Assembly (NCBI GenBank): GCA_047619225.1
Contig: JBLHJX010000002.1
Location: forward strand, 4,410-68,409
Origin: Candidatus Latescibacterota bacterium
Lineage (GTDB): Bacteria > Latescibacterota > UBA2968
Length of the DNA stretch: 64,000 nucleotides
Direction of reading: 5' to 3'
Shown: piece by piece, positions 1,009-55,192 of the stretch
Layout: the number at the start of each line of letters is the position of its first letter
How positions within the stretch are numbered: position 1 is the first letter of the stretch
Program-made: the position numbers and the translations under genes
The notes under the pieces: model-generated
What the model was told of the DNA's origin: nothing
The model's database searches: none
The model's input: the letters and a program-made list of their open reading frames with translations, nothing else

Positions 1009-1209
1009 GTTTGCTCCTTGGGATGAAATTTTTTGTGGATGCTCACAATATATAGGCCCACGGGGTGCGATGCCATCATGAAACTCAGTGCCAATGGAAA
1101 TGGTGCGCTGTGATCGATTACTTTTGTTGATTTTTTAGTCAAATTTGGTGACCTTATTGCTTGGTTGATTTTTTACCAACGCGTTGATCATACATCGGAG
1201 GATTGCGAG

Positions 1210-2013
1210 ATGACAATTACGGATGCACAGTGGGAACAATATGATGAAGATGGGTTTTTGAAATTGGGTAAGGTGCTCGATGAAACACAATTGCAGGCTT
1301 TGCAGGATCGTATTGATGAGATTATGTTGGGTAAAAGCCGAGTCGGTTATGATAAGATTATGATGCAGTTGGACAGTGATACGGGTAAGTATGGTGATGT
1401 TGGACCACAGACCAATGGGTTAAAAACACCGACGTTGAATTATCGCAAGATCCAGGGGCTTGAGTTTGATCCGGTGTTTTTGGAATATGTGCAAGACCCT
1501 ATATTCAAAGAAATATGTGCACATATATATGGGCCAGATACACCCATTGCTTCTTTTCGATCTATGTTTATGAACAAACCCGCCAACAAAGGCACCGTTT
1601 TGCCGTGGCATCAAGACCGTTGGAATACGTTGGATCGCGATCCTTTGCTGACGGTATATACGGCTTTGGACCCGGCAACGAAAGAAAACGGGTGTGTGCA
1701 GATTATTCCAAAGAGTCATAAAATCGGCGTTATTAATCCAAGTCATCCGTCGGGGTTTTTGACGCCTGAATTGGCGGAGGTTCATTGCAAACCAGAAGAC
1801 ACGCTTTTTCTTGAACTTGAAGCGGGTGAGGTGGCGCTGTTGCACAATTGGACGTTGCACAGTTCCGATGTGAATCGCAGTGATCAGTCTCGTCGTGCAT
1901 TTAGTGTGTCTTATATGGACGCGGAAACGGTTAATACGCGTAAAAATGCATTGGCTTCTGAGTCGGTAGTTTTTGGTGAGGGTGCGCTAACGGTTGAGCA
2001 TGCGGTTGCTTAG
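1210..2013 (+). CDS. Phytanoyl-CoA dioxygenase (PhyH) family Fe(II)/2-oxoglutarate oxygenase
   Basis: Track ORF 1165..2013. I prefer ATG 1210, which has GGAGGA 8 nt upstream. The MTITDAQWEQYDEDGFLKLGKVL start and the LPWHQD (HxD) motif are typical of PhyH. Confidence 0.8.
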   Translation: MTITDAQWEQYDEDGFLKLGKVLDETQLQALQDRIDEIMLGKSRVGYDKIMMQLDSDTGKYGDVGPQTNGLKTPTLNYRKIQGLEFDPVFLEYVQDPIFKEICAHIYGPDTPIASFRSMFMNKPANKGTVLPWHQDRWNTLDRDPLLTVYTALDPATKENGCVQIIPKSHKIGVINPSHPSGFLTPELAEVHCKPEDTLFLELEAGEVALLHNWTLHSSDVNRSDQSRRAFSVSYMDAETVNTRKNALASESVVFGEGALTVEHAVA

Positions 2014-2090
2014 ACCCCCTCGATCCTTGGTTGAAAAAGAGGGCGGATATAAGATTATGTTACCACTTAAATTTAACAACAGAGGGCAAG

Positions 2091-2936
2091 ATGGGGTTTG
2101 GATTGACGCAAGAACAGATCAATCAGTTTCACGATGAAGGGTATTTGATTTTGCCTGCTGTGTTTGATGCAGATGAAGTGCAGAAAATGCGGGAAGAGGC
2201 AGATTTCATTTTGGAGCTAACGATTAATTCTTCAATTTGCAATGATCGCAAGAGTCGCCGGTTAGATATTCGGAGTGTTTCTGCGGGTTATCAGGTGGTG
2301 CGCAAGGTTCAGCCGATTAATGATCTGTCTTTGTACTTGGCGCAAGTGTCTGCCGATGACCGGTTGGTGAAGCCGTTGGCACAGTTGATGGATGATACGC
2401 CTGTTTTGATGGAAGAAAAGTTGAATTATAAAGAGCCTTTGCCAAATGCTGTGGACATTGACTCCCCTGAGGTTGAAGACCAGTTTCCGGTGCATAACGA
2501 TTGGGCTTATTATGCAGCACAAAATTATCCCCAATCGATTATTTCATCTGCAATTAGTATGGATGAATGCACGCCCAAATCAGGGCCGCTACGAATTTGG
2601 CCTGGGTCTCATAAACAACATTTGGAACATGAGAAGATGCCATTGGGTTTACAGATAAAAGAGGGGCTAATTGATTTTGACGGTGGGCAAGATGTGTTGT
2701 GTCCGGCTGGGTCAGTGATGCTGTTTCATACGGTTTTGGTGCATAACTCGCGTGCCAATACGTCGGGCAAACCACGACGGTTGATGATTTACAGCCATTA
2801 TCCAGAATCGGCAAACATGGGAATTGATGTGCGCAATGGGCCAACGAGGCTGAGAGAGTCGCCGTATGAATTGGCGTATTTGCGAGCAAAAGATAAAGGT
2901 TTGTTTGCGGATGTGTTTTCGGCTCCGGTGTTTTAG
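2091..2936 (+). CDS. Second PhyH-family oxygenase (paralogue-like)
   Basis: Track ORF 2031..2936. ATG 2091 gives MGFGLTQEQINQFHDEGYLILPAVF. It has the FPVHNDW HxD motif and a distal His in LFHTVLVHNS. Confidence 0.8.
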   Translation: MGFGLTQEQINQFHDEGYLILPAVFDADEVQKMREEADFILELTINSSICNDRKSRRLDIRSVSAGYQVVRKVQPINDLSLYLAQVSADDRLVKPLAQLMDDTPVLMEEKLNYKEPLPNAVDIDSPEVEDQFPVHNDWAYYAAQNYPQSIISSAISMDECTPKSGPLRIWPGSHKQHLEHEKMPLGLQIKEGLIDFDGGQDVLCPAGSVMLFHTVLVHNSRANTSGKPRRLMIYSHYPESANMGIDVRNGPTRLRESPYELAYLRAKDKGLFADVFSAPVF

Positions 2937-3026: not shown

Positions 3027-3332
3027 TTACGATTCGTAATCAAAGACCAACACATCATCTACCAAGGGGCGCAAGAGGGTTGCTCCAAGTTCTTGGTGAT
3101 CGGGGTGTGGCAAGTACGCATCACGCGCAGCGGCATTGGTAAAGCGCATGGTGAATCCCCATGTGAACCCATGTTCTTTGCCTTCGGGGCTGTTGTTGTA
3201 TCCGGCAGTGACAGATTCTATGCCGGGGATGGTACCTTTTTCTTTTAGGACAATGAGGCCGTCATGGAGGGCTTGGGTTTGGGCCTCGGTGACGCCGTCT
3301 TTGAGGTTGAGCAATACGATGTGTTCGATCAT
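3027..3332 (-). CDS. Dabb (stress-responsive A/B-barrel) domain protein
   Basis: 101 aa. The pattern MIEHIVLLNLKDGVT...GFTWGF...RDAYLPHPDHQ is typical of the Dabb family. Confidence 0.75.
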   Translation of the reverse strand: MIEHIVLLNLKDGVTEAQTQALHDGLIVLKEKGTIPGIESVTAGYNNSPEGKEHGFTWGFTMRFTNAAARDAYLPHPDHQELGATLLRPLVDDVLVFDYES

Positions 3333-3403
3333 TGAGGTTCCTTTGAAATCGCAGAGCGCATAGAACGGGGCGCAGAGCGTTTGAGGTGATACTGGAACAG
3401 AGG

Positions 3404-3970
3404 TTAATTAGCGATTTTGGTTTCGATGGCCTCTTGGAGTTCGGCTGGGCTGAAACCGCCTGGGCCTCGGGCACCGGGGTAAAGCACACGTTGATCTGTG
3501 TCGATGAGGTAGAGACGTTCGGGCCAAGCGGCATAGGCGATCATGACGGCATCGTCTATTTCATCAACATAGGTTTTGATGCCGTATTGCATAGATATTT
3601 CGCATTGACCTGCAACTTGGCGGCGTTCTTCAATGGTGGTGGGGTCGTAAATACCGGTGTCTTTGAGTTTCCAACCGTTTTCGGGATGTGCTTCGCGAAT
3701 GTAGATGACGAGGAATTGGATTTGTTTGTTGTATTGTGCATACAGGTCACGGAGGCTGACCGCCTCACGAACAAAGGGCGGTCATGTAAAACTGCCGAAA
3801 ACGAGGGCAACGGGGTTTTCTTTGCAGAGGTTGGATAGACGAATAGGATTTTCGCCGTTGGCATCATGCAGTTCAAAATCGGGTGCAAGGGTTCCTGTTT
3901 TGGGTGCAAGCGGGTCGTAGTGGTCGAGCCATGCGTGGGCGTCGTCTCGGCTCTGAAATGTTTGGGACAT
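3404..3970 (-). CDS. Iodothyronine-deiodinase-like thioredoxin-fold selenoprotein (188 codons, UGA = Sec at 3782-3784)
   Basis: The track splits it into 3782..3970 and 3404..3592. Both pieces are in the same frame, and the stretch between is open except for TGA 3782-3784. Read-through gives ...PVALVFGSFT-U-PPFVREAVSLRDLYAQYNKQIQFLVIYIREAHPENGW...AWPERLYLIDTDQRVLYPGARGPGGF. This matches the deiodinase FGSxT-U-PxF active site and the FLVIYIxEAH, ERLYxI and GxGP blocks. Confidence 0.8.
3752..3784 (-). promoter_or_regulatory. Candidate bacterial SECIS element
   Basis: The mRNA reads UGACCGCCCUUUGUUCGUGAGGCGGUCAGCCUCCGU. Two alternative hairpins are possible. One is UGACCGCC/GGCGGUCA (8 bp, includes the UGA; 3757-3784). 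The other is GAGGC-GGUCA-GCCUC (3752-3766), which starts 15 nt after the UGA and has a G/U-containing apical loop like fdhF-type bSECIS. Confidence 0.4.
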
Positions 3971-4078
3971 GGAGAAATCCTTCTATTTTTTCTCATAAAA
4001 GTAAAGAGAAAAGTGAGCGATTGAACATCGGTGTAAGGTATTTGGATTGCGACTAATGAATGGTGTAAAATTGAAAAG

Positions 4079-4255
4079 TCAATTTGAAAAGCATCGCCCC
4101 ATGTTGAGACTGTAACAAGCCTTGACCTTTTCACGCATCGGTTCAAAGTCAATGGCTCCTTTGACCTGGCGCAGGTCATGATCGACCGGAATCAGCTTTG
4201 CAAAAACGAGGGGATCTGTCTCAGCCACCTGGGTGTAGCAGTCTGATTTGACCAT
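4079..4255 (-). pseudogene. Relic of a DDE transposase N-terminus (IS5/IS1182-like), about 58 codons
   Basis: The sequence ...DPLVFAKLIPVDHDLRQVKGAIDFEPMREKVKACYSLNMGR is followed by a stop. It resembles the LIPxDHxLRxI..DFxxxRxxxxxxYSxxGRP start of IS5/IS1182 transposases. The catalytic part is absent. Confidence 0.35.
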
Positions 4256-11673: not shown

Positions 11674-12840
11674 CTACAACTTAAACGTCTTCAATTCCAC
11701 CTGCTCAAGCGTCTGCGCAATCATCGCATCCAAATCAAGTTGAGCTTCAATTTTATGAACCATATCCAACTTCGCTTTTGTTTCCGGATGCTTCGGCACA
11801 AACACCGAACAACAATCTTCATACGGCTCAATCGACACCTCATACGTCCCAATCTTCCGTGCCACATCAATAATCTCTTCTTTATTATCCCCCGCCAACG
11901 GCCGTAAAATCGGCATCAACGTCACCTCTTCAATCGCCCGCATATTGGCCAACGTTTGCGACGCCACCTGCCCCACGTTATCCCCCGTCACCAAAGCCTG
12001 GCAGTTTGCCTTCTCTGCCAATGCCGCCGCAATACGCACCATACACCGCCGATACAAAATTACACGATAGCTCTCAAGTGTATGCGTCATAATATGTCGC
12101 TGAATCTCAACAAACGGCACCAAATACAAATCCGACACATACTGATACCGATTCAGTATATTCACCAACTCTTCAGTATTGCGCTGTGAATTGCGATCGG
12201 TATACGGCTGACTGTGAAAATGCACATAAGTCAAATGCACACCACGCTTCATAATCTTATACGACGCCACTGGCGAATCAATACCCGACGAAATCAAACT
12301 CATCGCGCGTTCATTTGCATCCACAGGCAAACCGCCCGGCGCAGAAACCTTCTCGGCATAAACAAAAAATCTCGACGCTGCAAGCTCAATATAAATTTCT
12401 AAATCAGCGCCTTTCATCTTCACCTGTGCGCCCGAACGTTCCTTCACATATGCACCTACATCGCGATTGATCTCTTCCGACGTCATAAAAAAAGATTTAT
12501 CGCTCCGCCGCGTCGACATTCTAAACGACTTAAATTCTGCTTTCTGTGCCAAAGCCCAAGCAGTCTCTCGCAAAGCCTCAATATTGCGATCAACAGTCAC
12601 AGCCTCAGAAAAATTCGCCACACCAAACACTTGGCTCAACCGCTCCCGAATCACATCCAAAGGAGACTCAGGAGTCAGCTCCAAAATCATTCGCCCATGC
12701 AAACGCCGCACAGCACCACGCGGCACATTTTTTAAAGACCGATCAATATTGCGCTGGAGCCGTTGCTCAAACTTGCCTCGGTTTTTACCTTTCAAACCAA
12801 TCTCGTGATAATGAATCAAAAATAAACGCGCGTTAGTCAT
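11674..12840 (-). CDS. thiI: tRNA 4-thiouridine synthase ThiI (no rhodanese domain)
   Basis: 388 aa. LIHYHEIGLKGKNRGKFEQRL matches the ferredoxin-like/THUMP start, and SGIDSPVA is the PP-loop. Confidence 0.9.
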   Translation of the reverse strand: MTNARLFLIHYHEIGLKGKNRGKFEQRLQRNIDRSLKNVPRGAVRRLHGRMILELTPESPLDVIRERLSQVFGVANFSEAVTVDRNIEALRETAWALAQKAEFKSFRMSTRRSDKSFFMTSEEINRDVGAYVKERSGAQVKMKGADLEIYIELAASRFFVYAEKVSAPGGLPVDANERAMSLISSGIDSPVASYKIMKRGVHLTYVHFHSQPYTDRNSQRNTEELVNILNRYQYVSDLYLVPFVEIQRHIMTHTLESYRVILYRRCMVRIAAALAEKANCQALVTGDNVGQVASQTLANMRAIEEVTLMPILRPLAGDNKEEIIDVARKIGTYEVSIEPYEDCCSVFVPKHPETKAKLDMVHKIEAQLDLDAMIAQTLEQVELKTFKL

Positions 12841-14396
12841 GAAACCTCTCGTTGCAAAATCACCATGGTAATATCATCTGTTCGCGGTGCATCCCCAATA
12901 AAAGCCACCACCTGGGACACAGTCTTATCAATCAAATCTTTAGGAGTCATATCTGTGCCTGCTTGTTCAAGCACATGCAAAAAACGATCATCATCAAACA
13001 AATCACTGCGGGCATTTTGTGCCTCAACCACCCCATCCGAATACAAAACCAAACGTTCACCAGGTGCCAACGTCACACAAACCGTTTCATACGGCTCATC
13101 GGGTCGCACAATTTTGGGCAATCCCAACGGATATCCACTCAAGTCAACCAACCGAGCCTTTTCACCCACCAAAATAGGCGGGCAATGTCCCGCACTGGCC
13201 ATCTGCACCACACCTGTTTGCACATCCAAAACCGCAACACAACACGTAATAAAGGTCGCCAAATCAATTTGGCCTTCCAAAGACGCATTGAGCCCATCCA
13301 ATATCCCTGCCGGCTCGATATGCCCTTCACATTCATACCGCAACATCTCATTAAATCGCAGCGCCGTTACAGCCGCTTCCATTGCTTTACCAGACACATC
13401 AGCCACCACAATCGCCAGCTTGGTCTTCTCTTTATCCAACCAACGATATGCATAATAATCCCCCCCCACACTGTTGGCCGGAATACATCGCCCCGACAAA
13501 TCATACCCCGTCAAATCAGGCACCGCAGGAGGTAACAAATCCATTTGCATATCATGAGCCGTTTGCAACTCATCTCGCATCTCGGCAAACTGCTGTGTAT
13601 AACGCAACCACTGGCGTGCTTCTTCACCCAATGTTTGCTCATACGCCGATGCAAACAACCCACATGAAAACGGTGCAAAAGCAAGAACAAACAGCACCTG
13701 CACATCCGATTCGGGCGCCAAATATTCAACGATACTGATCACACACATCAAAACAGCCAAAGCAGCCAGAATCAACACCACATGTTTCCAAAACCCATAC
13801 CGCTCAACAGCTTTACGGCTTTCCACATACGCTTCATCCAAACGCAATCCACGATCTGCCGCCAGCAAATACATATAAAAACATTTAATCACAAAAAACA
13901 AACCCGGCAAAAATAACAAAAAAAATGTAAGCGCAACGGTCACTAAAATGACATTCTGAGACCTCAAAAAAGCCACAATATCTTCTGGGCCAATCGCAAT
14001 CATCCAAGGTGTGTCTTCTATAATGCGATTGCGAAAAGCATTGAGCATAGCAGCAAATACTTCACTTTGCAAAAACAACGGTACCGCAATCAGCAATATG
14101 CCCAAAATAAAAAACAGCATAATAAAAACAGTAATTGAAAAAAACCGAAGAAAACGCTTCACTTGGCCAAAAAGATCACGGAAATGAGGACGTTGTCCTT
14201 GCACACCTCGCAAAGTCATCAACAACAACCCCGCATACAAACTGCCCATCAACAACGTGCCCGAAAGCATACTCAACCCAAACGCAATCACCGATGCGGC
14301 AAACAAAATAGGAATATTGCTTGCCCACACAGATAACGCATCTGTAAAACATTTTCGGATACGTAATGTTGCATGATATGGAATTTCAAGTGCCAT
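12837..14396 (-). CDS. Membrane-anchored PP2C (SpoIIE/RsbU-type) phosphatase, paralogue of 4558..6213
   Basis: 519 aa. The N-terminal block SGTLLMGSLYAGLLL..RDLFGQVKRF and the C-terminal block DMQMDLLP..GDYYAYRWLD..VVADVSGKAMEAA..LVLYSDGVVEA..DDITMVIL align with the paralogue. Its stop overlaps the thiI start by 4 nt. Confidence 0.85.
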   Translation of the reverse strand: MALEIPYHATLRIRKCFTDALSVWASNIPILFAASVIAFGLSMLSGTLLMGSLYAGLLLMTLRGVQGQRPHFRDLFGQVKRFLRFFSITVFIMLFFILGILLIAVPLFLQSEVFAAMLNAFRNRIIEDTPWMIAIGPEDIVAFLRSQNVILVTVALTFFLLFLPGLFFVIKCFYMYLLAADRGLRLDEAYVESRKAVERYGFWKHVVLILAALAVLMCVISIVEYLAPESDVQVLFVLAFAPFSCGLFASAYEQTLGEEARQWLRYTQQFAEMRDELQTAHDMQMDLLPPAVPDLTGYDLSGRCIPANSVGGDYYAYRWLDKEKTKLAIVVADVSGKAMEAAVTALRFNEMLRYECEGHIEPAGILDGLNASLEGQIDLATFITCCVAVLDVQTGVVQMASAGHCPPILVGEKARLVDLSGYPLGLPKIVRPDEPYETVCVTLAPGERLVLYSDGVVEAQNARSDLFDDDRFLHVLEQAGTDMTPKDLIDKTVSQVVAFIGDAPRTDDITMVILQREVS

Positions 14397-18577: not shown

Positions 18578-18775
18578 TTAATCTTCTCTATTCACCAAAC
18601 GCAAACCAACCATCACACACCCAACGGCCACAGCAAGCTTAACCAACAAAAAAGCCAACCCAAATACAGAGCCAATCAGTGGAAATAAAACCTGCAACGC
18701 AATCACACCACCAACGACAATCAACAAAATACCTAAGAGTTTAACGAGCATGGCCAGTCTCTTTCTATAAAACAC
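18578..18775 (-). CDS. Small two-TM membrane protein
   Basis: 65 aa, almost entirely hydrophobic (LLGILLIVVGGVIALQVLFPLIGSVFGLAFLLVKLAVAVGCVMVGL). It lies inside the co-directional psp cluster. Confidence 0.5.
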   Translation of the reverse strand: MFYRKRLAMLVKLLGILLIVVGGVIALQVLFPLIGSVFGLAFLLVKLAVAVGCVMVGLRLVNRED

Positions 18776-18803
18776 GTGAGAACGGGTGAGGTGTTACTTT
18801 CTA

Positions 18804-19139
18804 TTAAACCTTTTCGCCATCTTCTACAGACGCATCTGCCTGCCTCTCTGAACGACTCAACTTTTCATCAATCGTAATCACAATCTCCTGAATATCTGAT
18901 AACCGTTTCTCCAAATGTGTAATGCGTTCAGAAGATGCCTCTTGATCCGATGATTTTGTATTTTTTTGCTTACTAAATTTAAAAATGTTGGTTCGGTCTA
19001 TGAGTTTTAAAAATATTCCCCAAATCATAAAAAGCAAAACCCCACCCCCAAGCGATGGGCCATGCATAACATAACCTATCGAGCCTCCGGTCAAAATAAT
19101 CATACAAATACAAACGGTGAATTGGAATACAACAGGCAT
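18804..19139 (-). CDS. Membrane protein with PspB-like C-terminal helix
   Basis: 111 aa with two N-terminal TM segments. The C-terminal RITHLEKRLSDIQEIVITIDEKLSR is shared with 19252..20088 and 20133..20330. Confidence 0.55.
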   Translation of the reverse strand: MPVVFQFTVCICMIILTGGSIGYVMHGPSLGGGVLLFMIWGIFLKLIDRTNIFKFSKQKNTKSSDQEASSERITHLEKRLSDIQEIVITIDEKLSRSERQADASVEDGEKV

Positions 19140-19251
19140 AAAATTACCCTCCCTTTAATCTTTCTCAGCCAGTTCTGGCTCCAGTGATCTTTCAAACCGA
19201 TTTGTATATAGGACGACTCTTGTAGTTAATCCCGAACTGAAAGCCACTTTT

Positions 19252-20088
19252 TTACGTTCGCTTTAATCGCCGATCCAATCGATCATCAATCGACAGCAAA
19301 ATATCTTGCAAATCATTCACACGATTTTCAAAATCTGCAATCCGCGTATCAAAATTATCTTCACTCTCTACCGCAAAACGCCGCTTATAAATATAATAAC
19401 CACCCAAGCCCATCAACAAAATTGCACCGAACACAGATGCAATATTTGTCATGTGCAACAAAAAAATATGATTGGTATTTTCATGGGGAAATGATGCAAT
19501 AGCAGGAACGGGAGGAACTGCAGGCGTAGGAGGAACTTGAAAATTCATTTTTGGAATATGGATCTCAGGAATATGCACTTCAATTTCTGGAATGTGAATT
19601 TCCGGCACATGAATGTGTTGGCCTGGAACGATAGGTTGATTGGCATCTTTCATCTGTTTGATGTATTCAGGTTTTACACCCGTGCTATAAAAGGTAATAA
19701 TGTCTCGGATGGAGATATCAGAATAACCAAGTTCTTTAATTTGCTTGATATAGTCGGGTTTCACACCTACAGAATATAAAGTAGTTATATCGCGTGTTGA
19801 AATATCAGAATAATCAAGTTCTTTAATCTGTTTGATATATTCAGGCTTGACACCTACAGAATACAGCGTTGTAAGTTCATTCGCCGAAAGGTTGCTATAT
19901 CCCAACCCTTTAAGTTGTTGAATATATTCTGGTGTCACACCCACCGATGCAAGCGTTGTAATTTCGCGAGCAGAAAAATTGAATCCAGTATACTGTTCGG
20001 CATAGGCGTTACAGGCAACAAACACAATGAGCAGAGTCGGAAAAATATTTCGGGGGAAAGTCATGATCAAATCCTTAAGAAAGCTCAC
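19252..20088 (-). CDS. Exported repeat protein with TM anchor and PspB-like C-terminal helix
   Basis: It has a signal peptide and four ~30-aa repeats (SVGVKPEYIKQIKELGYSDIS.RDITTLY). A HIPEI repeat tract, a TM segment and then FENRVNDLQDILLSIDDRLDRR follow. Confidence 0.65.
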   Translation of the reverse strand: MSFLKDLIMTFPRNIFPTLLIVFVACNAYAEQYTGFNFSAREITTLASVGVTPEYIQQLKGLGYSNLSANELTTLYSVGVKPEYIKQIKELDYSDISTRDITTLYSVGVKPDYIKQIKELGYSDISIRDIITFYSTGVKPEYIKQMKDANQPIVPGQHIHVPEIHIPEIEVHIPEIHIPKMNFQVPPTPAVPPVPAIASFPHENTNHIFLLHMTNIASVFGAILLMGLGGYYIYKRRFAVESEDNFDTRIADFENRVNDLQDILLSIDDRLDRRLKRT

Positions 20089-29818: not shown

Positions 29819-30829
29819 GTGCCTGATTTCAAATCCATCGGTGAATTTGGTTTCATCGACCACATTGCCACACACCCAACACCCAAACATGTTCTATGTG
29901 GCATTGGCGATGATTGTGCCGTTATGGCACAATCCAATACCCAAGTACGGCTCGTTACCACCGATATGATGGTAGAAGGCATACATTTTTTCACCCATAC
30001 CCCGCCCGAGGGTTTGGGGCACAAACTCCTTGCGGTCAATCTCTCCGATATCGCAGCAATGGGCGGCACACCTACAGACGCCGTCATCTCCCTTGCTGTA
30101 CCGATCAACCACGATGTGGGATATCTTGAGCGTTTATACAACGGTCTTTACGCCTGTGCCGATCGTTTTGGCGTAGCCATTGTTGGCGGCGACACCACAC
30201 GCAGCAACAACCAACTTGTACTCAATATTACACTGACAGGTCATATGGACCTTGCCCACGTGTGTTATCGATCAGGCGCACAACCCGGAGATCTCATCTA
30301 CGTCTCAGGCACACTGGGCGATGCAACGGGCGGTCTGTCTCTCATTCGCGATAAAGTTGAAATGAACCAAACCCATCGCACCCACCTCTTGCGCAAATTC
30401 CATCGCCCAGAACCGCGCTTGGAACTGGGACAAACCCTTTCCAAAACCGGTGCAATTACAGCAATGATGGACATTTCAGACGGTGTGGCCTCAGATTTGC
30501 GCCACATTTGTCAACGCAGCAGTGTGTCTGCAACACTCCAAGCATCAACCATTCCTTTATCAGAGGCATCTCTCCGTTTTTGTGAAAAAACAAAAAAGGA
30601 TGCAATCCAATTGGCTTTATCTGGCGGAGAAGACTACGAACTCCTATTTACAATCAAACCAGATCGTGCAAAAGAGATCGAAAACCTCGTTCAAAAATCA
30701 GATCATCCCCAAATCACCTGTATCGGCCAAATAACAAATGGCAGCGGTGACATCTCAATTACATACAAAGAGGGTTCACTCTCTCCACTTAAATTTACTG
30801 GGTATGACCACTTTAGGACCAACGCCTAA
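29819..30829 (+). CDS. thiL: Thiamine-monophosphate kinase
   Basis: 336 aa with a GTG start. Motifs are GEFGFIDHI, GIGDDCAV, TTDMMVEGIHF, VGGDTT and SGGEDYELLFT. Confidence 0.85.
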   Translation: MPDFKSIGEFGFIDHIATHPTPKHVLCGIGDDCAVMAQSNTQVRLVTTDMMVEGIHFFTHTPPEGLGHKLLAVNLSDIAAMGGTPTDAVISLAVPINHDVGYLERLYNGLYACADRFGVAIVGGDTTRSNNQLVLNITLTGHMDLAHVCYRSGAQPGDLIYVSGTLGDATGGLSLIRDKVEMNQTHRTHLLRKFHRPEPRLELGQTLSKTGAITAMMDISDGVASDLRHICQRSSVSATLQASTIPLSEASLRFCEKTKKDAIQLALSGGEDYELLFTIKPDRAKEIENLVQKSDHPQITCIGQITNGSGDISITYKEGSLSPLKFTGYDHFRTNA

Positions 30830-46469: not shown

Positions 46470-46928
46470 TTAATCCTCTTCAGGATTTAAAATAAAAAGC
46501 CCCTCTTGCCTTGCGATCTGACAAAAGGGGATATCGGCACATACAAAATAATCAAGTGGTGCTTGTCTATGAAATTCAAGTGCAACAGCTAACTGGAGTG
46601 CATCTAACGTTCGCAAATTTTCAGTGCGTGCATATGTCATCAACAGACGGATCGCACGTTGTTGATGTATGAGATTAAGAGGAAGAATACGGAGCTTACG
46701 ATTTCGAATATCTGAAAGGAATCGACTACGTAAAATACGAAAGTCATTTGGAATCAATATCCCCATACGAACAAGTCGAGCAAGAGCAGAATGCCATTCA
46801 ATCAGTCCAAGACGTGAAATAAAGATGCGATTGCTTGGTTCGTTAATGAGGTCTATAACTTTCTTCCGGCCTATTTCCTCATGATAATATTTAATCAGGG
46901 CACTGGTATCAAAAAAACAGTTTGCCAT
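46470..46928 (-). CDS. vapC: PIN-domain toxin (VapC-like)
   Basis: 152 aa with an N-terminal FFDTSALIKY acidic residue and LRTLDALQLAVA. Confidence 0.8.
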   Translation of the reverse strand: MANCFFDTSALIKYYHEEIGRKKVIDLINEPSNRIFISRLGLIEWHSALARLVRMGILIPNDFRILRSRFLSDIRNRKLRILPLNLIHQQRAIRLLMTYARTENLRTLDALQLAVALEFHRQAPLDYFVCADIPFCQIARQEGLFILNPEED

Positions 46929-47236
46929 TACCGCTCATCTCTTTCTTCACTTATCATTTTTGCCATAGATCCTTTGATTTTAGAAGTGATTTTGAGAACT
47001 TCTTCCATAGTTATAGAAGAGTCCGCTTCGGCCATCATTTCCTGCCCAAGGTCAGACGCCCAAAACTCTTTATCTTCTAAATCATGAGATGCATCTTCGA
47101 TTTGATAAGAAGTTTGCAACTGTGCCTCTATTCTTCGCCTCACTTCCATCAAATCTTCCGACGAAAGTTTACAAACCGTCTCAATCAATCTTTCCAAAGG
47201 CAATTGAATACTCACATCTTTATCCGTAATGGCCAT
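46928..47236 (-). CDS. Putative cognate antitoxin
   Basis: 102 aa and acidic. Its stop overlaps the vapC ATG (TAATG). The family is not recognised. Confidence 0.55.
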   Translation of the reverse strand: MAITDKDVSIQLPLERLIETVCKLSSEDLMEVRRRIEAQLQTSYQIEDASHDLEDKEFWASDLGQEMMAEADSSITMEEVLKITSKIKGSMAKMISEERDER

Positions 47237-47294
47237 CTTTCCCCTCTTTAATCAGAGATTCTATATTGTCAACACACCTCTCGAAATATATCCC

Positions 47295-47339
47295 AATCAC
47301 AGATAGAATTCAAGCCATCAATCACATGATCAAATCACA
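47295..47339 (-). promoter_or_regulatory. Three direct AATCACA repeats upstream of the antitoxin gene
   Basis: Copies lie at 47295-47301, 47320-47326 and 47333-47339 (TGTGATT on the coding strand). A TTGACA hexamer lies downstream of them, close to ATG 47236. Confidence 0.3.
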
Positions 47340-47348
47340 GCTTACTTT

Positions 47349-47987
47349 TCACAGTTTACCCACCTCATCCAATCGCAAAACTTTTGCCCCCACCGCTATC
47401 AAATGGGCGTTGGCATCACTCTCCAAAGTATACACAATTTTTCCTGCTGCAATAACATCTTGCGCCAAAACCGCCGTTTTGCCATTAGGATTGGCATGAA
47501 CAACAAGCACGTCTTGGGCAAGTGTAGCCACAAACCGATTGCGCAGTTCAGACAAAGCCGCCGTCACGCGCATGTGCCGATCTTCAAATGGAGACAATAC
47601 CAACATCTGTCCACTCTGAATCTTCGACCGCCAAGTCACAGGCACCCGCATCCGATTTAAACTCCGTGCCGGACAAACCACAATGGGTTGATCACCCCGC
47701 ATCAACACATCAAACGCTTCTTTTTCCATGGGTGTATGAAATCCACTGATCACAGTAGCACCCGAATCGCGCAAATGTTGTGCAACATCATATGTTTTAA
47801 GCACCAAATCACCAGGGCAACGAACCGAGCAAAACATGCCCAACAAACTGGGCTGTAAAATATCGAAATTGCCTAAGAATGAAAGACGGTGTGGGGATTC
47901 AAAAAGAGAGGACGTTTTAAGCGCAGGCGGGTAGCGAGAATCGTCGGTCAGAATATGGTGAATAGAAACATTCATAGAGATACCCAT
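47349..47987 (-). CDS. Stand-alone DprA/Smf-like Rossmann (SLOG-type) domain protein
   Basis: Track ORF extends to TTG 48002; ATG 47987 is an alternative. The core is GMFCSVRCPG..ATVISGFHTPMEKEAFDVLMRG..IVVCPARSL..LVLSPFE..RNRFVATLAQDVLVVHANPNGKT. Confidence 0.6.
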   Translation of the reverse strand: MGISMNVSIHHILTDDSRYPPALKTSSLFESPHRLSFLGNFDILQPSLLGMFCSVRCPGDLVLKTYDVAQHLRDSGATVISGFHTPMEKEAFDVLMRGDQPIVVCPARSLNRMRVPVTWRSKIQSGQMLVLSPFEDRHMRVTAALSELRNRFVATLAQDVLVVHANPNGKTAVLAQDVIAAGKIVYTLESDANAHLIAVGAKVLRLDEVGKL

Positions 47988-47998
47988 TAACAATAATG

Positions 47999-48415
47999 TC
48001 AAATAGCAGCCATTGTCGGTTTAATGTCCACAAACGTCAACGGTATCTGCTCTGTGGGAGAAACTTGAAAATGTGACACCTTTAAAAACTGGCTCACAGG
48101 CATTGACATAATAATCTGAAAAACCATATCCTGCAAATCTTCTGGCAGGTTATCCAACTTGTTCAGAGGAAAACTACGCGGCCCATATTCTGTTCGCTCG
48201 GTCAAAATAGAAAAATCAAGCAACAGCAAACTGATCGCGCGTTTGCTTCTTCTGTTAAACCGCAAAACAATGTGATCCGTAATTTCAACACCCGTGGCCG
48301 ATTCATTCTCACCAAAAAAGATCTCCAGATGATCAGCCTCTTGATCATAAACGAGATGAACCAAAGTGCCGTCAGAGGTTGTGGTTTCTGTCTTAACAAG
48401 ATTGAGTTCGCTCAT
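47999..48415 (-). CDS. DUF2283-like small protein
   Basis: 138 aa. LVYDQEADHLEIFFGENE...EITDHIVLRFN fits my recollection of the DUF2283 signature. It lies immediately upstream of the DprA-like gene. Confidence 0.5.
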   Translation of the reverse strand: MSELNLVKTETTTSDGTLVHLVYDQEADHLEIFFGENESATGVEITDHIVLRFNRRSKRAISLLLLDFSILTERTEYGPRSFPLNKLDNLPEDLQDMVFQIIMSMPVSQFLKVSHFQVSPTEQIPLTFVDIKPTMAAI

Positions 48416-48536
48416 TGGCTCATCAACATTTATGACATATTCCTCGAAAAGATTCTATGGACAATCATGTTCTATAAAAATAGCCAAACAAAATCAAAAT
48501 GCCAATCACAAACACGCTTCCCGATTTGGGAAAGAG

Positions 48537-50869
48537 CTATTCATCCACATCAATCCCCATCCGATATTTGATGTCGTAATTGATAATAAAATCCAATTCC
48601 TCATCCGTAAACCCATAATGCTGCGCCAATACACGATCAATCTCGTCTATGATGGGTTTGCTAACACGCGGTTGAAATGTTTGGATGTTTTTTATACCAA
48701 ATTTTCCATAATTATTTGTAAGAATTTTTGAATTTTTCTCAAAATCTTTCATAAGCTTTCTAGCCAAAGAAGATATTTCACTAACAGAGGAAAGCTTGTT
48801 TAAAGAAGATCTGAAGTGATCAAGTTCTCGCCGATTCACATTACGCACATCTGAAAAAGCATTAAAAAACCAAAAGAAAAGTGTCGAATTGAGTAAAGCA
48901 ATAAGAGCATAAACTTCAGAGGAATTATTAAGACGGATTTCTTTTAGTTCCGTTGGAGCTAACGCATTATCCTTTTCATCGGTGATTTTTGGTATAAAAT
49001 CGAAAAATTGAACGAAATATCTGAGTTTTCGAGTATAGTAAACAATATGATTAGCATTTTTCCGATAAAATTGATACAAAATCGGATGCTTCTGTATCTT
49101 CTCCAGTATTGACATTTCTAATGGTGTAGAGATTTTTGCAATGGCATCCTTTACCAAATTCGATTCTGCCTTTTGATCAACATATTTTGTTGTTCCAAGA
49201 AGATGGTCTCGTTCTTCAGAGAGCCAGCGGTGATACTTTGAAATAAAAAACCCTTCTCCACCAGCAAAATCTGAAAGCCAAATAGTTAGACGTTTTTCAA
49301 CACCATTAAATAGTTTTGATGGACGCTCTGCAAAATTCGTTATCCAAGACTTGATATTTTTATTTATAAATAATTTTCGGAGATCAGAGAATCCATCAGC
49401 ACTAACAATTGAAATTGGAATAATCATTCCGAATTTTCCATACTCTTTCAAAAGTATAAAGGAACGTTCTATAATAAACGCATATAGATCCCCACAGGAC
49501 TCTGTCCTATAATTTTTTATATTATATGACTTTTGAACCTTTCTGTATTCCACATAAGGCGGATTCCCAATAATTATGTCAAACCCACCACTTTCCATAA
49601 TTGCATAAAAATCCACAAACCAGTGAAAGGGCTGATGTGTGGCAAGCCACTCTGCATATTTTTTATGCTGTTTATCTGGGTCAATAATATTATACTCTGT
49701 AGCAAGGTAACGATTGAGTTCATTTTCAAGGTCAGCAAGGCGGTCGCGCAATTCTTTCTTATGTCCAGCAGTGATGTTGCCCCCATGCTGAGTTTGTTGT
49801 TCCCGAAATTGTTTAAACGCCTTTGCCGCATTCTCCGTACGTTCCTGAATTTTGGGCAATTCGAGTTGCTTCACCAAATCAGTTTTAAGTGTCCGTTTCA
49901 CATCCTCAAATGTCGCAAACCCAACCAACGTATTGCCCGCACGAATGTTAAAATCAATATCTGGCAACGGTTCAAGATCTTCTACATTTTCAATTTGAGA
50001 CACGAGTTTCAAAAACAGCCGCAGCTTGCAAATCTCCGTCGCTTCGGCCATAATATCTACACCAAAGAGATTCTTCAAAATAATGGTTTTGTAAATGAAA
50101 TAGGCACGGCTGGCATGATCCTCTACCTGTTGCAATGTCTCCCGAAAATCACTGAACTTTTTCGGCGAGTGTTTTTCACCCGAACGATCCAAATCATCTA
50201 CAAAATGCTGCATCCGAATCAGGCACATATCATACAGCGGTTCAAGAATATTCAAAGCCGCAAACAGAAACGCGCCCGAACCACACGTGGGGTCGAGCAC
50301 AGTCACATTAGAAATGGCCTTATAAAAGGCACGCAACACGTCAGCATCTTCACACCGGTCAATTGCATCACGCGCAAATTGAATAATATCCAAATTCAGC
50401 GTGATAAAATCATTGATCGTTGTCACATCACCATTTTGCAATTTTTAGCGCACATCCAAACATCGCTGCCGTCGCGCCACATGCTCGCGCCAGGTTTCGG
50501 TGGGCAAAGCATACACAGCATCCGCAGCTTTGTTCCAGCCATCGCGCTTCGACACATCGCCCACACCCACCTCAATGTCATCGGGCAATGCAACCACCTG
50601 CCCCTCATCGCCAATCACCCCTTTTAAAACCGCATCATAAATATAACGATCAGGGTCATCTTTAAGAGGTTGCCACAAAGGGGCATCTGGCGAACATGCA
50701 TAAACCACCATGCCACGCTTCTCCGCTATCGCAGTCAGTTCGTAATCATAGTCATCAATCTCTATAACCTGATTGGCTGGCGAAAGTCCCAACCCAATTC
50801 CTGTGTGAACAACCCGCTAAAATCACACTTCCCCAAACGCTCCAAAACGGCTTTTTTGTCAATATTCAT
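48537..50869 (-). pseudogene. Gamma-class N6-adenine DNA methyltransferase (Eco57I/type IIG-like) in three pieces
   Basis: Piece 1 runs from ATG 50869 to the stop at 50762 (MNIDKKAVLERLGKCDFSGLFTQELGWD...). Piece 2 is 50445..50792 in the -1/+2 frame. An in-frame TAA lies at 50445-50447. Piece 3 is 48537..50441 (634 aa) and carries VLDPTCGSGAFL (motif I) and IIIGNPPYV (motif IV). Confidence 0.7.
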
Positions 50870-50973
50870 GAACGACCATCCAAAGGGTTGATATTCAAAC
50901 ACATTTGTGCTATATTTGGTTTAGCGACCAGCATGGGCCGGTGTCAACCGACTCTGGACAATGTCCCTGGCCG

Positions 50974-51741
50974 CTACTTTTTTTGCTGTTCTGCAATCCA
51001 ACCCAACACATCTTGCAAATCTTCTCCACTGCGGTAAATAAGCCGGTCAATGGCAATAATACCACTTTCATCAAACGATTTGACCGGTAATCCTGCCTTG
51101 CCCTCTTCCTTCTTGCGCGCACTTAACGCACACATATCGCACAATTGCAGCATGAGGCTTTTTGTCGATTCGATAAAAAACCCCTTTTCTACAATCCGAT
51201 CCAACCGCAATTTACCCTCAATACCGCGTAAAATTTTGATCGATTTTTCAATATCGTGACCAATTTCCTTGTTTTCATCTGAAATAATCACGCCTCGTTG
51301 TGTGCCAGGCAACGTATGCAAATATTCGTTGGCCACATGGGCAACCAGTGGAAAAGCAACAATATGCGGATTAATCTGCACCCCCAAACCAAAGGTATTT
51401 TGCTGCCAACGCTGATACCGTTTTTTAACAATCGCACGATATATCAGCTTTAAATCATGACGGTGGGCAATATCAAAACAGGCGTCGCGAAAAACGATAC
51501 GATCACCCACCGACATATCTTTAAACGATCCTCTGCCCGAGCGCAAGTCTGTGCCATGAATTTCAAAATTGTCAGGACGTGGATCAGGAAAATAAGTGTC
51601 AATCAAAGTTTGCAAGTCACGCTCAGCATCTTGCCAAACCTCCTCAGGCACCACAAGCCCCGCCAGCACAAAAACAGGCTGTTGGGTGTCATCCAAGTTA
51701 TTGCCTGTATTGCCAGACTCATCAAAATAGATCAAATGCAC
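50974..51741 (-). CDS. DUF3800-family protein
   Basis: 255 aa with the MHLIYFDESGNTG start and the LMLQLCDMCA block, as I recall for DUF3800. Confidence 0.65.
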   Translation of the reverse strand: MHLIYFDESGNTGNNLDDTQQPVFVLAGLVVPEEVWQDAERDLQTLIDTYFPDPRPDNFEIHGTDLRSGRGSFKDMSVGDRIVFRDACFDIAHRHDLKLIYRAIVKKRYQRWQQNTFGLGVQINPHIVAFPLVAHVANEYLHTLPGTQRGVIISDENKEIGHDIEKSIKILRGIEGKLRLDRIVEKGFFIESTKSLMLQLCDMCALSARKKEEGKAGLPVKSFDESGIIAIDRLIYRSGEDLQDVLGWIAEQQKK

Positions 51742-51811: not shown

Positions 51812-54800
51812 CTATACCTCCTGCTTCAAACCCATCGAACAAATAATACGAGATTCCTGCCTTTGAACATCGTCGTGAATCACACACAAACGATTATCTT
51901 CCCGCAATGCAATCACAAGTTGAGCCAAGTTATCGTCTGAAATGCCGCTGCGAAGCTGGCGGTTCAACGTATCAGTTGCTACATTGGTCATCGGATATCG
52001 ATACATTTCTTCAATCGTACGGTGCAAAAGTGCCGTATCAAAAAGCGTGTTCTTAATACGATCTGCATAGCTTTTAAGCCGTTCATACACCCGAAAACGC
52101 GCACCCGAAGGACGCCCCAATGTGCCACCAACCGATTTGGATTCACTGGCAATATGCTTCAACCCCGCCAAAACCATTTGATGATGATTATCATGATGAA
52201 GTTGAGGAAGTGTCTCAGGACCACACTCAGCGGCACGCAAAATAGAAAATTGCGACTCTGTAATGCTGTTGCCCCCTTTATCTACCCACGCCAATGCATC
52301 ATTACCCTCGGCAGTTCTGACATAAACAAGTGCGCCTTCGGGATATGCTGTGTTCGGATTATGGGGCTTAGTGGCATAAACCACAGATGGCAATTCTGGC
52401 ACACGCTTGGCAAGGCTGGGATCGCGATCAGTGGCATTTTTCCAAATCTGATACGCATACGATGCCAAATCGATTTCGGTGTCATCATCCCCATCTAAAA
52501 CACCTGCCTTCTCCGTAAACAAATCACGCATGATATCTTCGTCATCATCATCTTCAAAAAACGATTCATCGGTACCAACGACCTCGGCATTTTCATGGAG
52601 CCGTTGCCGCACCCGAGCACGCAAGTTGATAATACGTTCAACACCCTCAGCAGGTAAAAAAGAATAGCACAAAATACGCTCAGACAACTGTCCAATACGA
52701 TCCACACGCCCAGCGCGTTGAATCAAACGAATAATGGCCCAAGGCAAATCGAAGTTGACAATAATCGCTGCGTCTTGAAGGTTTTGACCTTCACTCAGCA
52801 CATCGGTCGCAATCAAAACACGCAATGTTTGCTCAGGTGCAATCTGATCCTGTTTGTCATTGCTCACAGGGCTAAAACGATGTGCCAGATGTGTTGGATC
52901 AGATGAACCACCGGTCACACCCGAGAGCTGATCGGCTCCACGTTTCTTAAGCTGCTGTTCTAAATAGCTAACCGTATCTGCAAACTGTGTAAAAACAATA
53001 ACTTTTTCATCAGGATGTTGCTTAATCAGCAAATCTTCTAAAAGATTCAATTTCACATCTTTTTCCGGCAGCCAATCTCCACAAGTTTTCAACATTTGAA
53101 TAAGCTTGCGTGCATCTTTTAAAAGGTGCTTTCTCAAATTCTCATTAAATAAATCAGACCGAATCCAACGGAAACGCCGCCGAAATTTTGTGGCATATTG
53201 GGCATAAACATCCTCAGCACGCTTTAGAAAATCAGACTCTTTCCTCAGCGTTGTTCCTTGCACCTCAACAACTTCAGTAACATCATCTTCAAACAAGTCA
53301 CCAGGTGCATTGACATCATCAACATCGACATCTGTCAAACGCGCATCCAAGATACCAGGGTCTTGTGTACCAATGGGAATAGGTGCTTTGCTTTCAATAG
53401 CGTGCAAATAGATAAAATTGCGCAAAATATGGCGTTCAACAGATAAGGTAAAGGCATGACCACTGCTTTCGAGCCGTTTGAACAAATTGGTACGACAAAA
53501 TCCCATCAACCCTTTACCTGCGCGTGATAAATCTTGAAGAATTGTTTTTTCTGCGCCATTTGGTGATTGATCAGGCTTTGAAATTGTGTAATTGCCCAAT
53601 CCATAACGTGGCAAAAGCAAGCTGTTGATAGACCGAACAACAGGCTCTGAATACAAACGCGCATATTGATCTTCACCATTGCTATCTTCAATAGTAAATT
53701 GCACAGTCTTAGGTAAACGAATGGGAAAATAGGATTGGGTGCCATCTTCCAATTTTAAATACTCACGCCCCTCATCATCCAATTTTGCATAATTGCCTTT
53801 AATAAAACTGCGCGTGCGCCGAACCAGATACAACCGCATCAACTCCCGCCAGTCGTCGGCGTATTCACTTTTCTCAAATGCAGCCAAAGAACGGGGTGGG
53901 CTTTGATAGCGACGCATAAACTGTGTTTCGCCCATATCGCGCATCAACCGCTCTGGGCGTATGCCAATATCTTTCTCCTCAGGAATAAACAGACGAAGCT
54001 GATTTGCAAGATCGAGGTACGTTTTGTTATACGGCGTGGCCGAAAGCATAATCACTTTGCTTTCGCTTTGACGAATATATTCCTGAATAGCACGATAACG
54101 TTTGCCGTCTCGGTTTCGCAGATTATGACTTTCGTCTATCAACACCAAACGAAAACGTGCAGGCACATCAGGTAATAGTTGAATAACTTGGCTAAACGGT
54201 ACAATCATTGCGTGCAAACCATATTCACGCGTATAACTTTCCCACATACCCACAAGATTTTTGGGGCACAAAATCAATGTACTCAGATAATGATCATCCT
54301 GAAAAATTCGTGCCAATGCAGTGGCCATGAGCGTTTTGCCCAAACCAACCACATCACCAATCAGCACACCACCCCGTTTATTCAAGTGATGGGCAGCAAT
54401 TTTAACAGCCGCAACTTGGAAATCAAAAAGCTTGTTGCCAAAATCTCTGGGAATCCGAAACTCTGTTAATCCTTCCCGTGCCTCTTTAGAAAGGTGATAA
54501 GCCATTTTAAGGTAAATTTCATAGGGTGAAAGGGTCTGCTCACCCGCCCAACTTTCTTGGATAATCTGCTCTAACTCATCTGAAATATCAATACACCATC
54601 GATCTTCCCACCGCTCATCAAACCATTTGGATAGTTTGCGACAAGCATCTTGATCTAAAACATCAACATTCAATTCGCCCTGATAGGACAGCCCAGAAAG
54701 CGTCAAATTGCTGCTGCCAAGATAACCAACAATTGGACTCACAGGGTCTTCGCGAAACATGAGGTACAGTTTGGCGTGCAATGGATGTTTCAAAAACAGC

Positions 54801-55192
54801 TTAACAACAACCTTCTTATCGCGTATTTGTGCTGCAAGTTTGCGCAAACCTTTTTCATCTTCTTGCGTCGGAACACCTATTGTTAATTGGTCTCTAAATT
54901 CTTCTGCCAATCGTTTTTTGAGCCTGAGAGCCGTTTGATTATCTATGCCGGGATTGCCATTTGAAATACTTTGAATCTGTCGCAACTCCTCCTGTGGCAT
55001 TCGTTGCATACCAATAAGGAGACGGCAACACTGATCTTTGCCACCAGACCATTGATCTACAGAGTTGGCAATTTGTTTCCAACCACGCAGGTTAAAATAT
55101 CCAACACAAAAATCACCACGATGTGAAACTTCAATCGTACTCTTCAATGCAGTGATCAAATGTTGGTTAATGTTGTCAAATATTTCAGGCAT
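51812..55192 (-). CDS. PLD/HKD-nuclease domain fused to SNF2-family helicase, with an uncharacterised C-terminal region
   Basis: 1126 aa. The HKD motif is HPLHAKLYLMF...GSSNLT. SNF2 motifs are DVVGLGKT, LVLIDESHNLRN and MLSATPYNK. The C-lobe has DVLSEGQNLQD and RAGRVDRIGQ. The last ~270 aa match no motif I know. Confidence 0.85.
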   Translation of the reverse strand: MPEIFDNINQHLITALKSTIEVSHRGDFCVGYFNLRGWKQIANSVDQWSGGKDQCCRLLIGMQRMPQEELRQIQSISNGNPGIDNQTALRLKKRLAEEFRDQLTIGVPTQEDEKGLRKLAAQIRDKKVVVKLFLKHPLHAKLYLMFREDPVSPIVGYLGSSNLTLSGLSYQGELNVDVLDQDACRKLSKWFDERWEDRWCIDISDELEQIIQESWAGEQTLSPYEIYLKMAYHLSKEAREGLTEFRIPRDFGNKLFDFQVAAVKIAAHHLNKRGGVLIGDVVGLGKTLMATALARIFQDDHYLSTLILCPKNLVGMWESYTREYGLHAMIVPFSQVIQLLPDVPARFRLVLIDESHNLRNRDGKRYRAIQEYIRQSESKVIMLSATPYNKTYLDLANQLRLFIPEEKDIGIRPERLMRDMGETQFMRRYQSPPRSLAAFEKSEYADDWRELMRLYLVRRTRSFIKGNYAKLDDEGREYLKLEDGTQSYFPIRLPKTVQFTIEDSNGEDQYARLYSEPVVRSINSLLLPRYGLGNYTISKPDQSPNGAEKTILQDLSRAGKGLMGFCRTNLFKRLESSGHAFTLSVERHILRNFIYLHAIESKAPIPIGTQDPGILDARLTDVDVDDVNAPGDLFEDDVTEVVEVQGTTLRKESDFLKRAEDVYAQYATKFRRRFRWIRSDLFNENLRKHLLKDARKLIQMLKTCGDWLPEKDVKLNLLEDLLIKQHPDEKVIVFTQFADTVSYLEQQLKKRGADQLSGVTGGSSDPTHLAHRFSPVSNDKQDQIAPEQTLRVLIATDVLSEGQNLQDAAIIVNFDLPWAIIRLIQRAGRVDRIGQLSERILCYSFLPAEGVERIINLRARVRQRLHENAEVVGTDESFFEDDDDEDIMRDLFTEKAGVLDGDDDTEIDLASYAYQIWKNATDRDPSLAKRVPELPSVVYATKPHNPNTAYPEGALVYVRTAEGNDALAWVDKGGNSITESQFSILRAAECGPETLPQLHHDNHHQMVLAGLKHIASESKSVGGTLGRPSGARFRVYERLKSYADRIKNTLFDTALLHRTIEEMYRYPMTNVATDTLNRQLRSGISDDNLAQLVIALREDNRLCVIHDDVQRQESRIICSMGLKQEV

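Follow-up and report, generated by a model that had tools for sequence, protein, structure and literature searches.

Minus-strand positions 3404..3970 of the DNA analyzed here, a 64,000-nucleotide (nt) stretch of contig JBLHJX010000002.1 from a Candidatus Latescibacterota bacterium (the window), very probably encode a soluble, 188-residue thioredoxin-fold enzyme of the prokaryotic deiodinase-like selenoprotein family (PF00837 superfamily), in which the UGA at 3782-3784 is read as selenocysteine (Sec). To our knowledge, thyroid-hormone deiodinases have no bacterial relatives outside this family. An earlier note on this DNA had described two open reading frames (ORFs) that lie in one frame, are parted by this TGA and together give a 188-residue product with deiodinase-like peptides, and our translation confirmed each of these points. 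The complete gene runs from the ATG at 3968-3970 through 188 sense codons (62 residues, Sec63 and a further 125 residues) to the TAA at 3404-3406, and the TGA is the sole interruption of this frame. The ORFs at 3782..3970 and 3404..3592, of 62 residues each, are parts of it. When read through, the product contains VFGSFT*PPF, FLVIYIREAHPENGW, ERLYLID and GARGPGGF, and the predicted Sec codon falls in the motif F-G-S-F-T-U-P-P-F. The purine-rich sequence AGAAGGA (3978..3984, minus strand), located 7 nt 5' of the ATG, is a plausible ribosome-binding site.

A deiodinase-like gene with an in-frame UGA

The window contains 160 in-frame TGA sites that join two open stretches, and the TGA at 3782-3784 was the only one spanned by protein homology. 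Inspection by eye, which is a weak test, revealed no other convincing in-frame-TGA selenoprotein gene in the window, i.e., none with a redox motif or with a convincing location outside a longer overlapping ORF.

The deiodinase-like identity that the earlier note had proposed was borne out by profile, structure and fold comparisons. For the Pfam search, Cys was put at the TGA position of the window protein. T4_deiodinase (PF00837) matched with 98.5 bits against a cut-off of 27 (E 4.8e-28), with residues 14-184 aligned to profile positions 66-235 of 237. By sequence, the best matches among solved structures were the catalytic core of mouse Dio3 (4TR3, E 6.5e-22) and Dio2 (9H48, E 9.5e-16). The TGA aligns with Sec170 of Dio3, which is Cys in the crystallized mutant (FGSFT-U-PPF in the window, FGSCT-C-PPF in 4TR3), and the loop-D segment of the Dio-specific insertion reads IREAHPENGW in the window protein and IEEAHPSDGW in 4TR3. 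The AlphaFold2 model that we used is that of the database protein P0001, which is 98% identical to the window protein and has W at the Sec site. It has a mean predicted local distance difference test score (pLDDT) of 82 and a predicted template modeling (TM) score of 0.83, and residues 61-70 are poorly predicted (mean pLDDT 55). Its top Foldseek matches were 4tr3 (Dio3, TM 0.71) and 9h48 (Dio2, TM 0.70), and other thioredoxin and peroxiredoxin folds reached 0.58 at most. The N-terminus of the 188-residue protein, MSQTFQSRDDAHAWLDHYDPLAPK, is hydrophilic, and the N-terminal transmembrane anchor of the vertebrate enzymes was not seen in the sequence, suggesting that the window protein is essentially a free, soluble catalytic core.

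A protein search of 5.8 billion sequences returned 612 matches, which were of two kinds. The majority (P0012 onwards) were C-terminal fragments of ~120 residues that cover the post-TGA part only and stem from gene calls restarting downstream, and the remaining P0001-P0011 were full length with W at the TGA column. At the DNA level, one of these loci (L002, 360-950) has TGA at the codon where the database protein shows W, and its translation with genetic code 11 does not give the database protein. The W at this column is an artefact of translating TGA with genetic code 4. As the earlier note had anticipated, gene callers miss or split this gene, leaving two 62-residue ORFs in the window and fragments or a spurious W in the databases. 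Two ORFs in other frames overlap the selenoprotein gene (3556-4179, minus strand, 207 residues; 3386-3838, plus strand, 150 residues). They are probably spurious and could mislead gene callers; shadow ORFs of this type were found again at related loci.

When one genome per GTDB species was scanned, at least 595 loci for related proteins were found. We examined the best 80 of these, whose main sources were Candidatus Latescibacterota, Poribacteria, Chloroflexota/Anaerolineae, Gammaproteobacteria and Planctomycetota, and the nearest of them was 90% identical to the window protein and had the same downstream gene. Two metagenome contigs brought the set to 82 related loci. The window and all 82 loci, which span 48-98% protein identity and at least five phyla, have TGA at the Sec63 column, and in all 82 the conserved sequence was intact on both sides of the TGA without other disruptions. 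Neither a gap nor a scattered stop, either of which the earlier note would have taken as the mark of a true split pseudogene, was seen at this column.

For distant relatives, we searched 1.84 billion cluster representatives (50%-identity clusters) exhaustively with HMMER and obtained 3073 relatives, of which the best 150 were aligned to the family hidden Markov model. At the TGA column, 125 of these 150 had Cys, as the earlier note had expected of homologs, four had W and nine had other residues; the remaining 12 were post-TGA fragments. Five Cys-form genes that we examined at the DNA level (L083-L087) had UGC or UGU at this position. Read from these alignments, the pairing of TGA with Cys is the Sec/Cys signature that defines selenoprotein families, and it therefore argues against a pseudogene.

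A pseudogene or split gene, in which the TGA arose by nonsense mutation or truly ends translation and leaves a 62-residue N-terminal peptide and/or a 62-residue C-terminal ORF starting at the ATG at 3592, would be in line with the splitting of the locus by gene callers, with the ~120-residue C-terminal fragments that make up most database entries, and with the lack of detected Sec machinery in the window. It is difficult to reconcile with a TGA at an identical column in every locus across several phyla, with a conserved hairpin that accompanies the TGA and is missing from the Cys forms (see below), and with the finding that conservation within the protein is highest between the TGA and the internal ATG (PPFVREAVSL...FLVIYIREAHPENGW), where the catalytic residues lie. 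We consider it extremely improbable.

A UGA decoded as a standard amino acid, i.e., as Trp or Gly under genetic code 4 or 25, as Trp by near-cognate read-through or as Cys by mis-insertion, is also very improbable. Sec insertion at this site is a prediction from sequence, and the public predictions P0001-P0011 do translate the UGA as W, but the TGA in the L002 DNA identifies these entries as translation artefacts. In the window, TGA is the ordinary stop of six of 36 ORFs, most of those with Pfam domain matches, and therefore the organism uses the standard genetic code. Furthermore, the homologous residue is a catalytic Cys or Sec, so that Trp or Gly would destroy the active site, and a SECIS-type hairpin (SECIS, Sec insertion sequence) is conserved at the expected distance from the UGA.

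The relatives also differ in architecture and copy number. The Sec forms in our set are single-domain proteins of ~190-220 residues. Many Cys-form homologs (P0121-P0270) are multidomain proteins of 400-900 residues whose deiodinase-like domain lies at the C-terminus or close to it, and one Cys-form locus (L087, 501-1481) joins CarboxypepD_reg to T4_deiodinase. Two Sec paralogs of a T-U-E-P-F subtype with the hairpin loop CGUGC (L019 and L022) come from one Anaerolineaceae metagenome-assembled genome, CAYZXF01. One contig labeled Methanosarcinales archaeon (L025, JAIWHF010000042.1, 3001-3609) carries the same gene with its TGA and a bacterial-type hairpin inside the coding sequence (CDS), GGGAC-CGGGC-GUCUC, which points to horizontal transfer or to a bacterial contig that was binned wrongly.

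A conserved hairpin downstream of the UGA

The earlier note had drawn two hairpins at and after the UGA. Both can indeed be drawn in the window, and one of them, hairpin 2, proved to be conserved with covariation, whereas the other, hairpin 1, paired no better than shuffled alignment columns. Numbering from the U of the UGA as +1, hairpin 2 starts 15 nt after the UGA, and its SECIS-like core at +19..+33 (3752..3766, minus strand) consists of a 5-bp stem, GAGGC/GCCUC, and a 5-nt loop, GGUCA, at 3757-3761. Hairpin 1 (3757..3784, minus strand) pairs +1..+8 with +21..+28 (UGACCGCC/GGCGGUCA); it overlaps hairpin 2 and is the minimum-free-energy structure in the window.

We compared the two hairpins in an alignment of 82 distinct sequences, which covers 75 nt around the TGA and is free of gaps. 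For hairpin 2, 96.3% of the cells were paired, compared with a shuffle mean of 90.5%, and none of 500 shuffles reached this value. As a control, the 3' arm was slid by 1-3 nt, which reduced pairing to 27-58%. Pair 22-30 was G-C in 33 sequences and A-U in 42, and pair 19-33 was G-C in 65, G-U in 8 and C-G in 3. For hairpin 1, the paired fraction of 64.9% equaled the shuffle mean of 64.8% and was reached by 163 of 500 shuffles. It showed no covariation, and all eight of its pairs were present in only 4 of the 82 sequences; although present in the window, it is not conserved. Hairpin 1 was therefore rejected as a SECIS.

Synonymous codon choice within hairpin 2, compared with an expectation derived from the codon usage of each individual locus, was constrained in favor of pairing. 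The Ser codon that ends at position 30 was AGU in 33 of the 35 sequences with A at position 22 (11.4 expected) and in only 2 of the 28 with G at that position. Similarly, the Leu codon was CUC in 64 of 81 cases (22.8 expected), the Gly codon was GGG in 52 of 55 (11.3 expected) and the Glu codon was GAG in all 22 (11.8 expected). Synonymous sites just beyond the stem vary freely and appear as 'n' columns in the consensus. In the loop, G25 was invariant and U26 almost invariant across the 82 sequences.

At +19..+33, the Cys-form genes L083-L087 formed 1, 3, 1, 1 and 4 of the five pairs, respectively, and the peptide encoded there was unrelated (n=5). Thus, the hairpin goes with the UGA. In the alignment (columns 31-45), the post-active-site peptide V-[RK]-[EG]-[AT]-V-S-L was found in the Sec forms only, and it is coded by the SECIS hairpin itself; the Cys forms have unrelated residues at this place, e.g., RRTLRSSL or RDVYPALE. 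The RNA structure therefore constrains the protein sequence.

The strong evidence for hairpin 2 is comparative and does not come from single-sequence folding, in which a 71-nt stretch was weakly unusual (z = -1.18). In the window, hairpin 2 also has an extended form (3750-3769, minus strand) with two extra pairs around a bulged U18. The 21-nt element that includes these pairs and the bulged U folds with -10.3 kcal/mol (z = -3.06, 1 of 200 shuffles). Of this element, the family conserves only the 5-bp stem and the loop G, and not the bulged-U extension. Altogether, the alignment points to a well-defined minimal SECIS for this family, composed of a 5-bp stem and an NGUNN loop at +19..+33.

Hairpin 1 must be melted once the UGA occupies the ribosomal A site, and at that stage the hairpin at +19..+33 would form just outside the mRNA entry channel. 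SelB.GTP.Sec-tRNA(Sec), by analogy with E. coli fdhF, would then bind the hairpin loop and deliver Sec in place of release factor 2.

Active-site residues and predicted chemistry

Roles for proton-relay and substrate-pocket residues of deiodinases have been described with the structure of Dio2 (PMC11592359). The window protein retains the equivalents of Dio3 Ser167 (S60), Thr169 (T62), Tyr197 (Y90) and Glu200 (E93), and further those of His202 (H95), Trp207 (W100) and Arg275 (R152). Thus, of the complete proton-relay set (Ser167, Thr169, Tyr197, Glu200, His202 and His219), five residues are present and His219 is not. The relay and pocket residues are mostly near-invariant across the family, with Trp100 and Ser60 less conserved. 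Among the 150 cluster representatives, the Tyr was found in 146, the Glu in 148, the His in 144 and the Arg (Arg152) in 146. The second conserved Cys of the family is C123, which was present in 102 of them.

From these residues we propose a peroxiredoxin/deiodinase-type cycle patterned on the one described for the Dio enzymes. Sec63, placed at the N-terminus of helix alpha1 in F-G-S-x-T-U-P-P-F, would act as the nucleophile. Its selenolate would attack an electrophilic atom, which could be a ring-bound halogen of an aromatic substrate or an oxygen of a peroxide, yielding a selenenyl halide or a selenenic acid. This intermediate could be resolved to a selenenylsulfide by Cys123, which is conserved in the family, or by an external thiol, and thioredoxin, glutaredoxin or glutathione would reduce the latter and regenerate the selenol.

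A peroxiredoxin-like function without dehalogenase chemistry, i.e., that of a Sec-dependent thiol peroxidase or a general thiol-disulfide oxidoreductase, is a serious contender, to which we give slightly less than an even chance. AhpC-TSA (PF00578, 31.6 bits, cut-off 26) and Redoxin (29.8 bits, cut-off 26.6) exceeded their Pfam thresholds as marginal matches to the window protein, but the deiodinase family was the best by far, with 98.5 bits against ~30 bits for the peroxiredoxin families. After Dio3 and Dio2, the PDB neighbors in both sequence and fold are peroxiredoxins, AhpE and ResA, and C123 would suit a 2-Cys-type cycle. The active-site motif of peroxiredoxins is P-x-x-x-T-x-x-C. This motif is lacking in the window protein, which has Leu56 at -7, Ser60 at -3 and Thr62 directly beside the Sec, and a function of this kind is also at odds with the near invariance of the Y-I-x-E-A-H-P-x-D-G-W segment and of Arg152 in bacteria. 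It agrees with the view of the discoverers of the family, who proposed a redox function and did not expect thyroid hormones in bacteria (PMC1088965).

Several observations weigh against a Sec-decoding, deiodinase-like enzyme at this locus. The 36 double-change cells counted for hairpin 2 over the 82 sequences come from related sequences and are not independent events, and the main switch between G-C and A-U may represent few events. G25 and U26 of the loop also open a conserved Val codon, and their conservation is thus not purely at the RNA level. The competing hairpin 1 is thermodynamically favored in the window sequence taken in isolation. No Rfam model matched hairpin 2 at gathering or permissive thresholds, and the single match on 3680-3830 was to an unrelated small RNA at chance level (E 5.7). 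tRNA-Sec, SelA, SelB and SelD were not found within the 64-kb window, as the earlier note had stated for selA, selB, selC and selD; this result holds for the absence of any tRNA and for a domain scan of 46 window ORFs, from which the long ORFs 51812-55192 and 59164-63756 were left out. In the 4TR3 alignment, Dio3 His219, Cys168 and Cys239 are not conserved in the window protein (at the His219 site there is a 2-residue gap beside T111/T112, where the family has D/Q-P-x-T), and therefore the proton relay and the resolving step are not identical to those of the mammalian enzymes. Finally, the bacterial family is described without a demonstrated activity (PMC1088965, PMC13188914).

Returning to the deiodinase-like selenoprotein, the retention of deiodinase-specific pocket residues makes us lean towards a deiodinase-like chemistry. 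It would probably not be identical to that of the animal enzymes, because His219 and the Dio cysteines are absent and because the discoverers did not expect thyroid hormones in bacteria. A more specific proposal is that the bacterial Sec deiodinase-like proteins are true reductive dehalogenases, which would use the Sec-halogen chemistry of deiodinases on natural marine iodo- or bromo-phenolics or on iodotyrosine-like metabolites. The near-invariant Y-I-x-E-A-H-P-x-D-G-W segment and the Arg275 equivalent appear compatible with such a function, which we nevertheless consider unlikely.

Relation to known systems and genomic context

The gene is a new member of a family known from marine bacteria since 2005. 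Zhang, Fomenko and Gladyshev reported four Sec and six Cys sequences of bacterial "deiodinase-like proteins" with a bacterial SECIS in the Sargasso Sea metagenome (PMC1088965), and the Global Ocean Sampling data set of 2008 contained 22 Sec deiodinase-like sequences, tabulated without a motif (PMC2398784). The remark in the earlier note that such proteins had been predicted in marine metagenomes is therefore correct. Reviews of prokaryotic selenoproteomes from 2022 and 2026 include the family and tabulate "UxxC" as its redox motif (PMC9312934, PMC13188914). The window gene shares with the family the PF00837 domain, the in-frame UGA paired with Cys homologs, the marine or uncultured source, and the SECIS-like stem-loop inside the CDS, whose small apical loop contains a G, and nothing essential differs. 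In contrast to the UxxC of the reviews, the window (3773-3784, U-P-P-F) and all 82 loci have U-[PEG]-P-[FY], without Cys at +3. The breadth of the family, with at least 595 GTDB-species loci and five phyla among the best 80, is not stated in these four papers (PMC1088965, PMC2398784, PMC9312934, PMC13188914). What our analysis adds is incremental, i.e., the breadth of the family in genome-resolved uncultured phyla, a minimal SECIS defined with codon-level evidence of selection, and the finding that this clade has U-P-P-[F/Y] where the reviews list UxxC.

With vertebrate Dio1-3 (4TR3, 9H48) the window protein shares F-G-S-x-T-U-P-P-F, the Sec column, the Ser/Thr/Tyr/Glu/His relay residues, the HPxDGW segment of loop D, the Arg275 equivalent, and the thioredoxin fold with the Dio insertion (~30% identity, TM 0.71). 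It differs from them in being a 188-residue soluble core without the N-terminal transmembrane anchor, in having C123 as its second Cys while Dio3 His219, Cys168 and Cys239 are not conserved, and in having its Sec specified by a hairpin inside the CDS, whereas theirs is specified by a SECIS in the 3' untranslated region. Thyroid hormones, moreover, are not an expected substrate of the window protein. NCBIfam NF038285 ("deiodinase_rel"), which describes a 347-residue deiodinase family protein, shares the C-terminal deiodinase-like domain. The window protein scored 179.3 bits, under the curated cut-off of 250, with residues 23-182 aligned to profile positions 176-340 of 347, and it lacks the N-terminal ~175 residues of that family.

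The SECIS comparison rests on the E. coli fdhF sequence, which was verified by a 100% match under fdhF in 5419 genomes; criteria for a bacterial SECIS consensus were not found in PMC1088965. The fdhF element is likewise a hairpin within the ORF directly 3' of the UGA, with a short upper stem, a bulged U and a small GGUC-containing loop. In fdhF the GGUC loop lies at +22..+25 and the bulged U is U17, and in the window the GGUCA loop lies at +24..+28 and the bulged U is U18. The window loop is thus 2 nt further from the UGA, and the bulged-U extension, as noted above, is not conserved in the family.

The window, whose GC content is 46.6%, is ordinary chromosomal DNA. Downstream of the selenoprotein gene, after a 71-nt gap, lies a co-oriented gene for a 101-residue Dabb stress-responsive A/B-barrel protein (3027..3332, minus strand; PF07876, E 1.3e-24), and the two genes are possibly co-transcribed. 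Across the 82 loci there was no conserved gene neighborhood that could serve as a functional clue. A downstream Dabb gene was limited to the window and to its two closest relatives, L001 and L003. The selenoprotein gene also has two tandem dioxygenase genes of the PhyH family (1165-2936, plus strand) as neighbors. PhyH genes also occur near the L001 ortholog (1158-1979, 13417-14208 and 18621-19394), and these are not positional orthologs of the window PhyH genes (28% identity).

The other genes of the window include those for SpoIIE phosphatases, a MacB/FtsX permease, a sigma-54 activator, sulfatases, a polysaccharide lyase, an Eco57I-type methylase, ThiI (11674-12840, minus strand) and the thiamine-phosphate kinase ThiL (29819-30829, plus strand), which has AIRS and AIRS_C domains. 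This AIRS protein was considered as a SelD candidate, perhaps with an upstream UGA, and was rejected, as it scored 337.6 bits with the ThiL model TIGR01379 and 73.7 bits, below the cut-off, with the selD model. A cluster at 46470-51741 (minus strand) that encodes a PIN-domain protein, a DprA-like protein, a 634-residue Eco57I/MmeI-type methylase and a DUF3800 protein possibly forms a small island for restriction or defense. A literature search on Sec utilization in Latescibacteria returned nothing informative.

For annotation, our results mean that the gene is systematically mis-called and that reading the UGA as Sec restores a complete enzyme. The map of Sec63, Ser60, Thr62, Tyr90, Glu93, His95, Trp100, Cys123 and Arg152 should ease heterologous expression and activity screening. 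The finding leaves the knowledge of this kind of system unchanged. For biology, it concerns a long-standing orphan family that is widespread in uncultured marine and sediment phyla. If its Sec members were true dehalogenases, the chemistry of deiodinases would have its prokaryotic origin in this clade, which would also provide a way of dehalogenating compounds aerobically without corrinoids.

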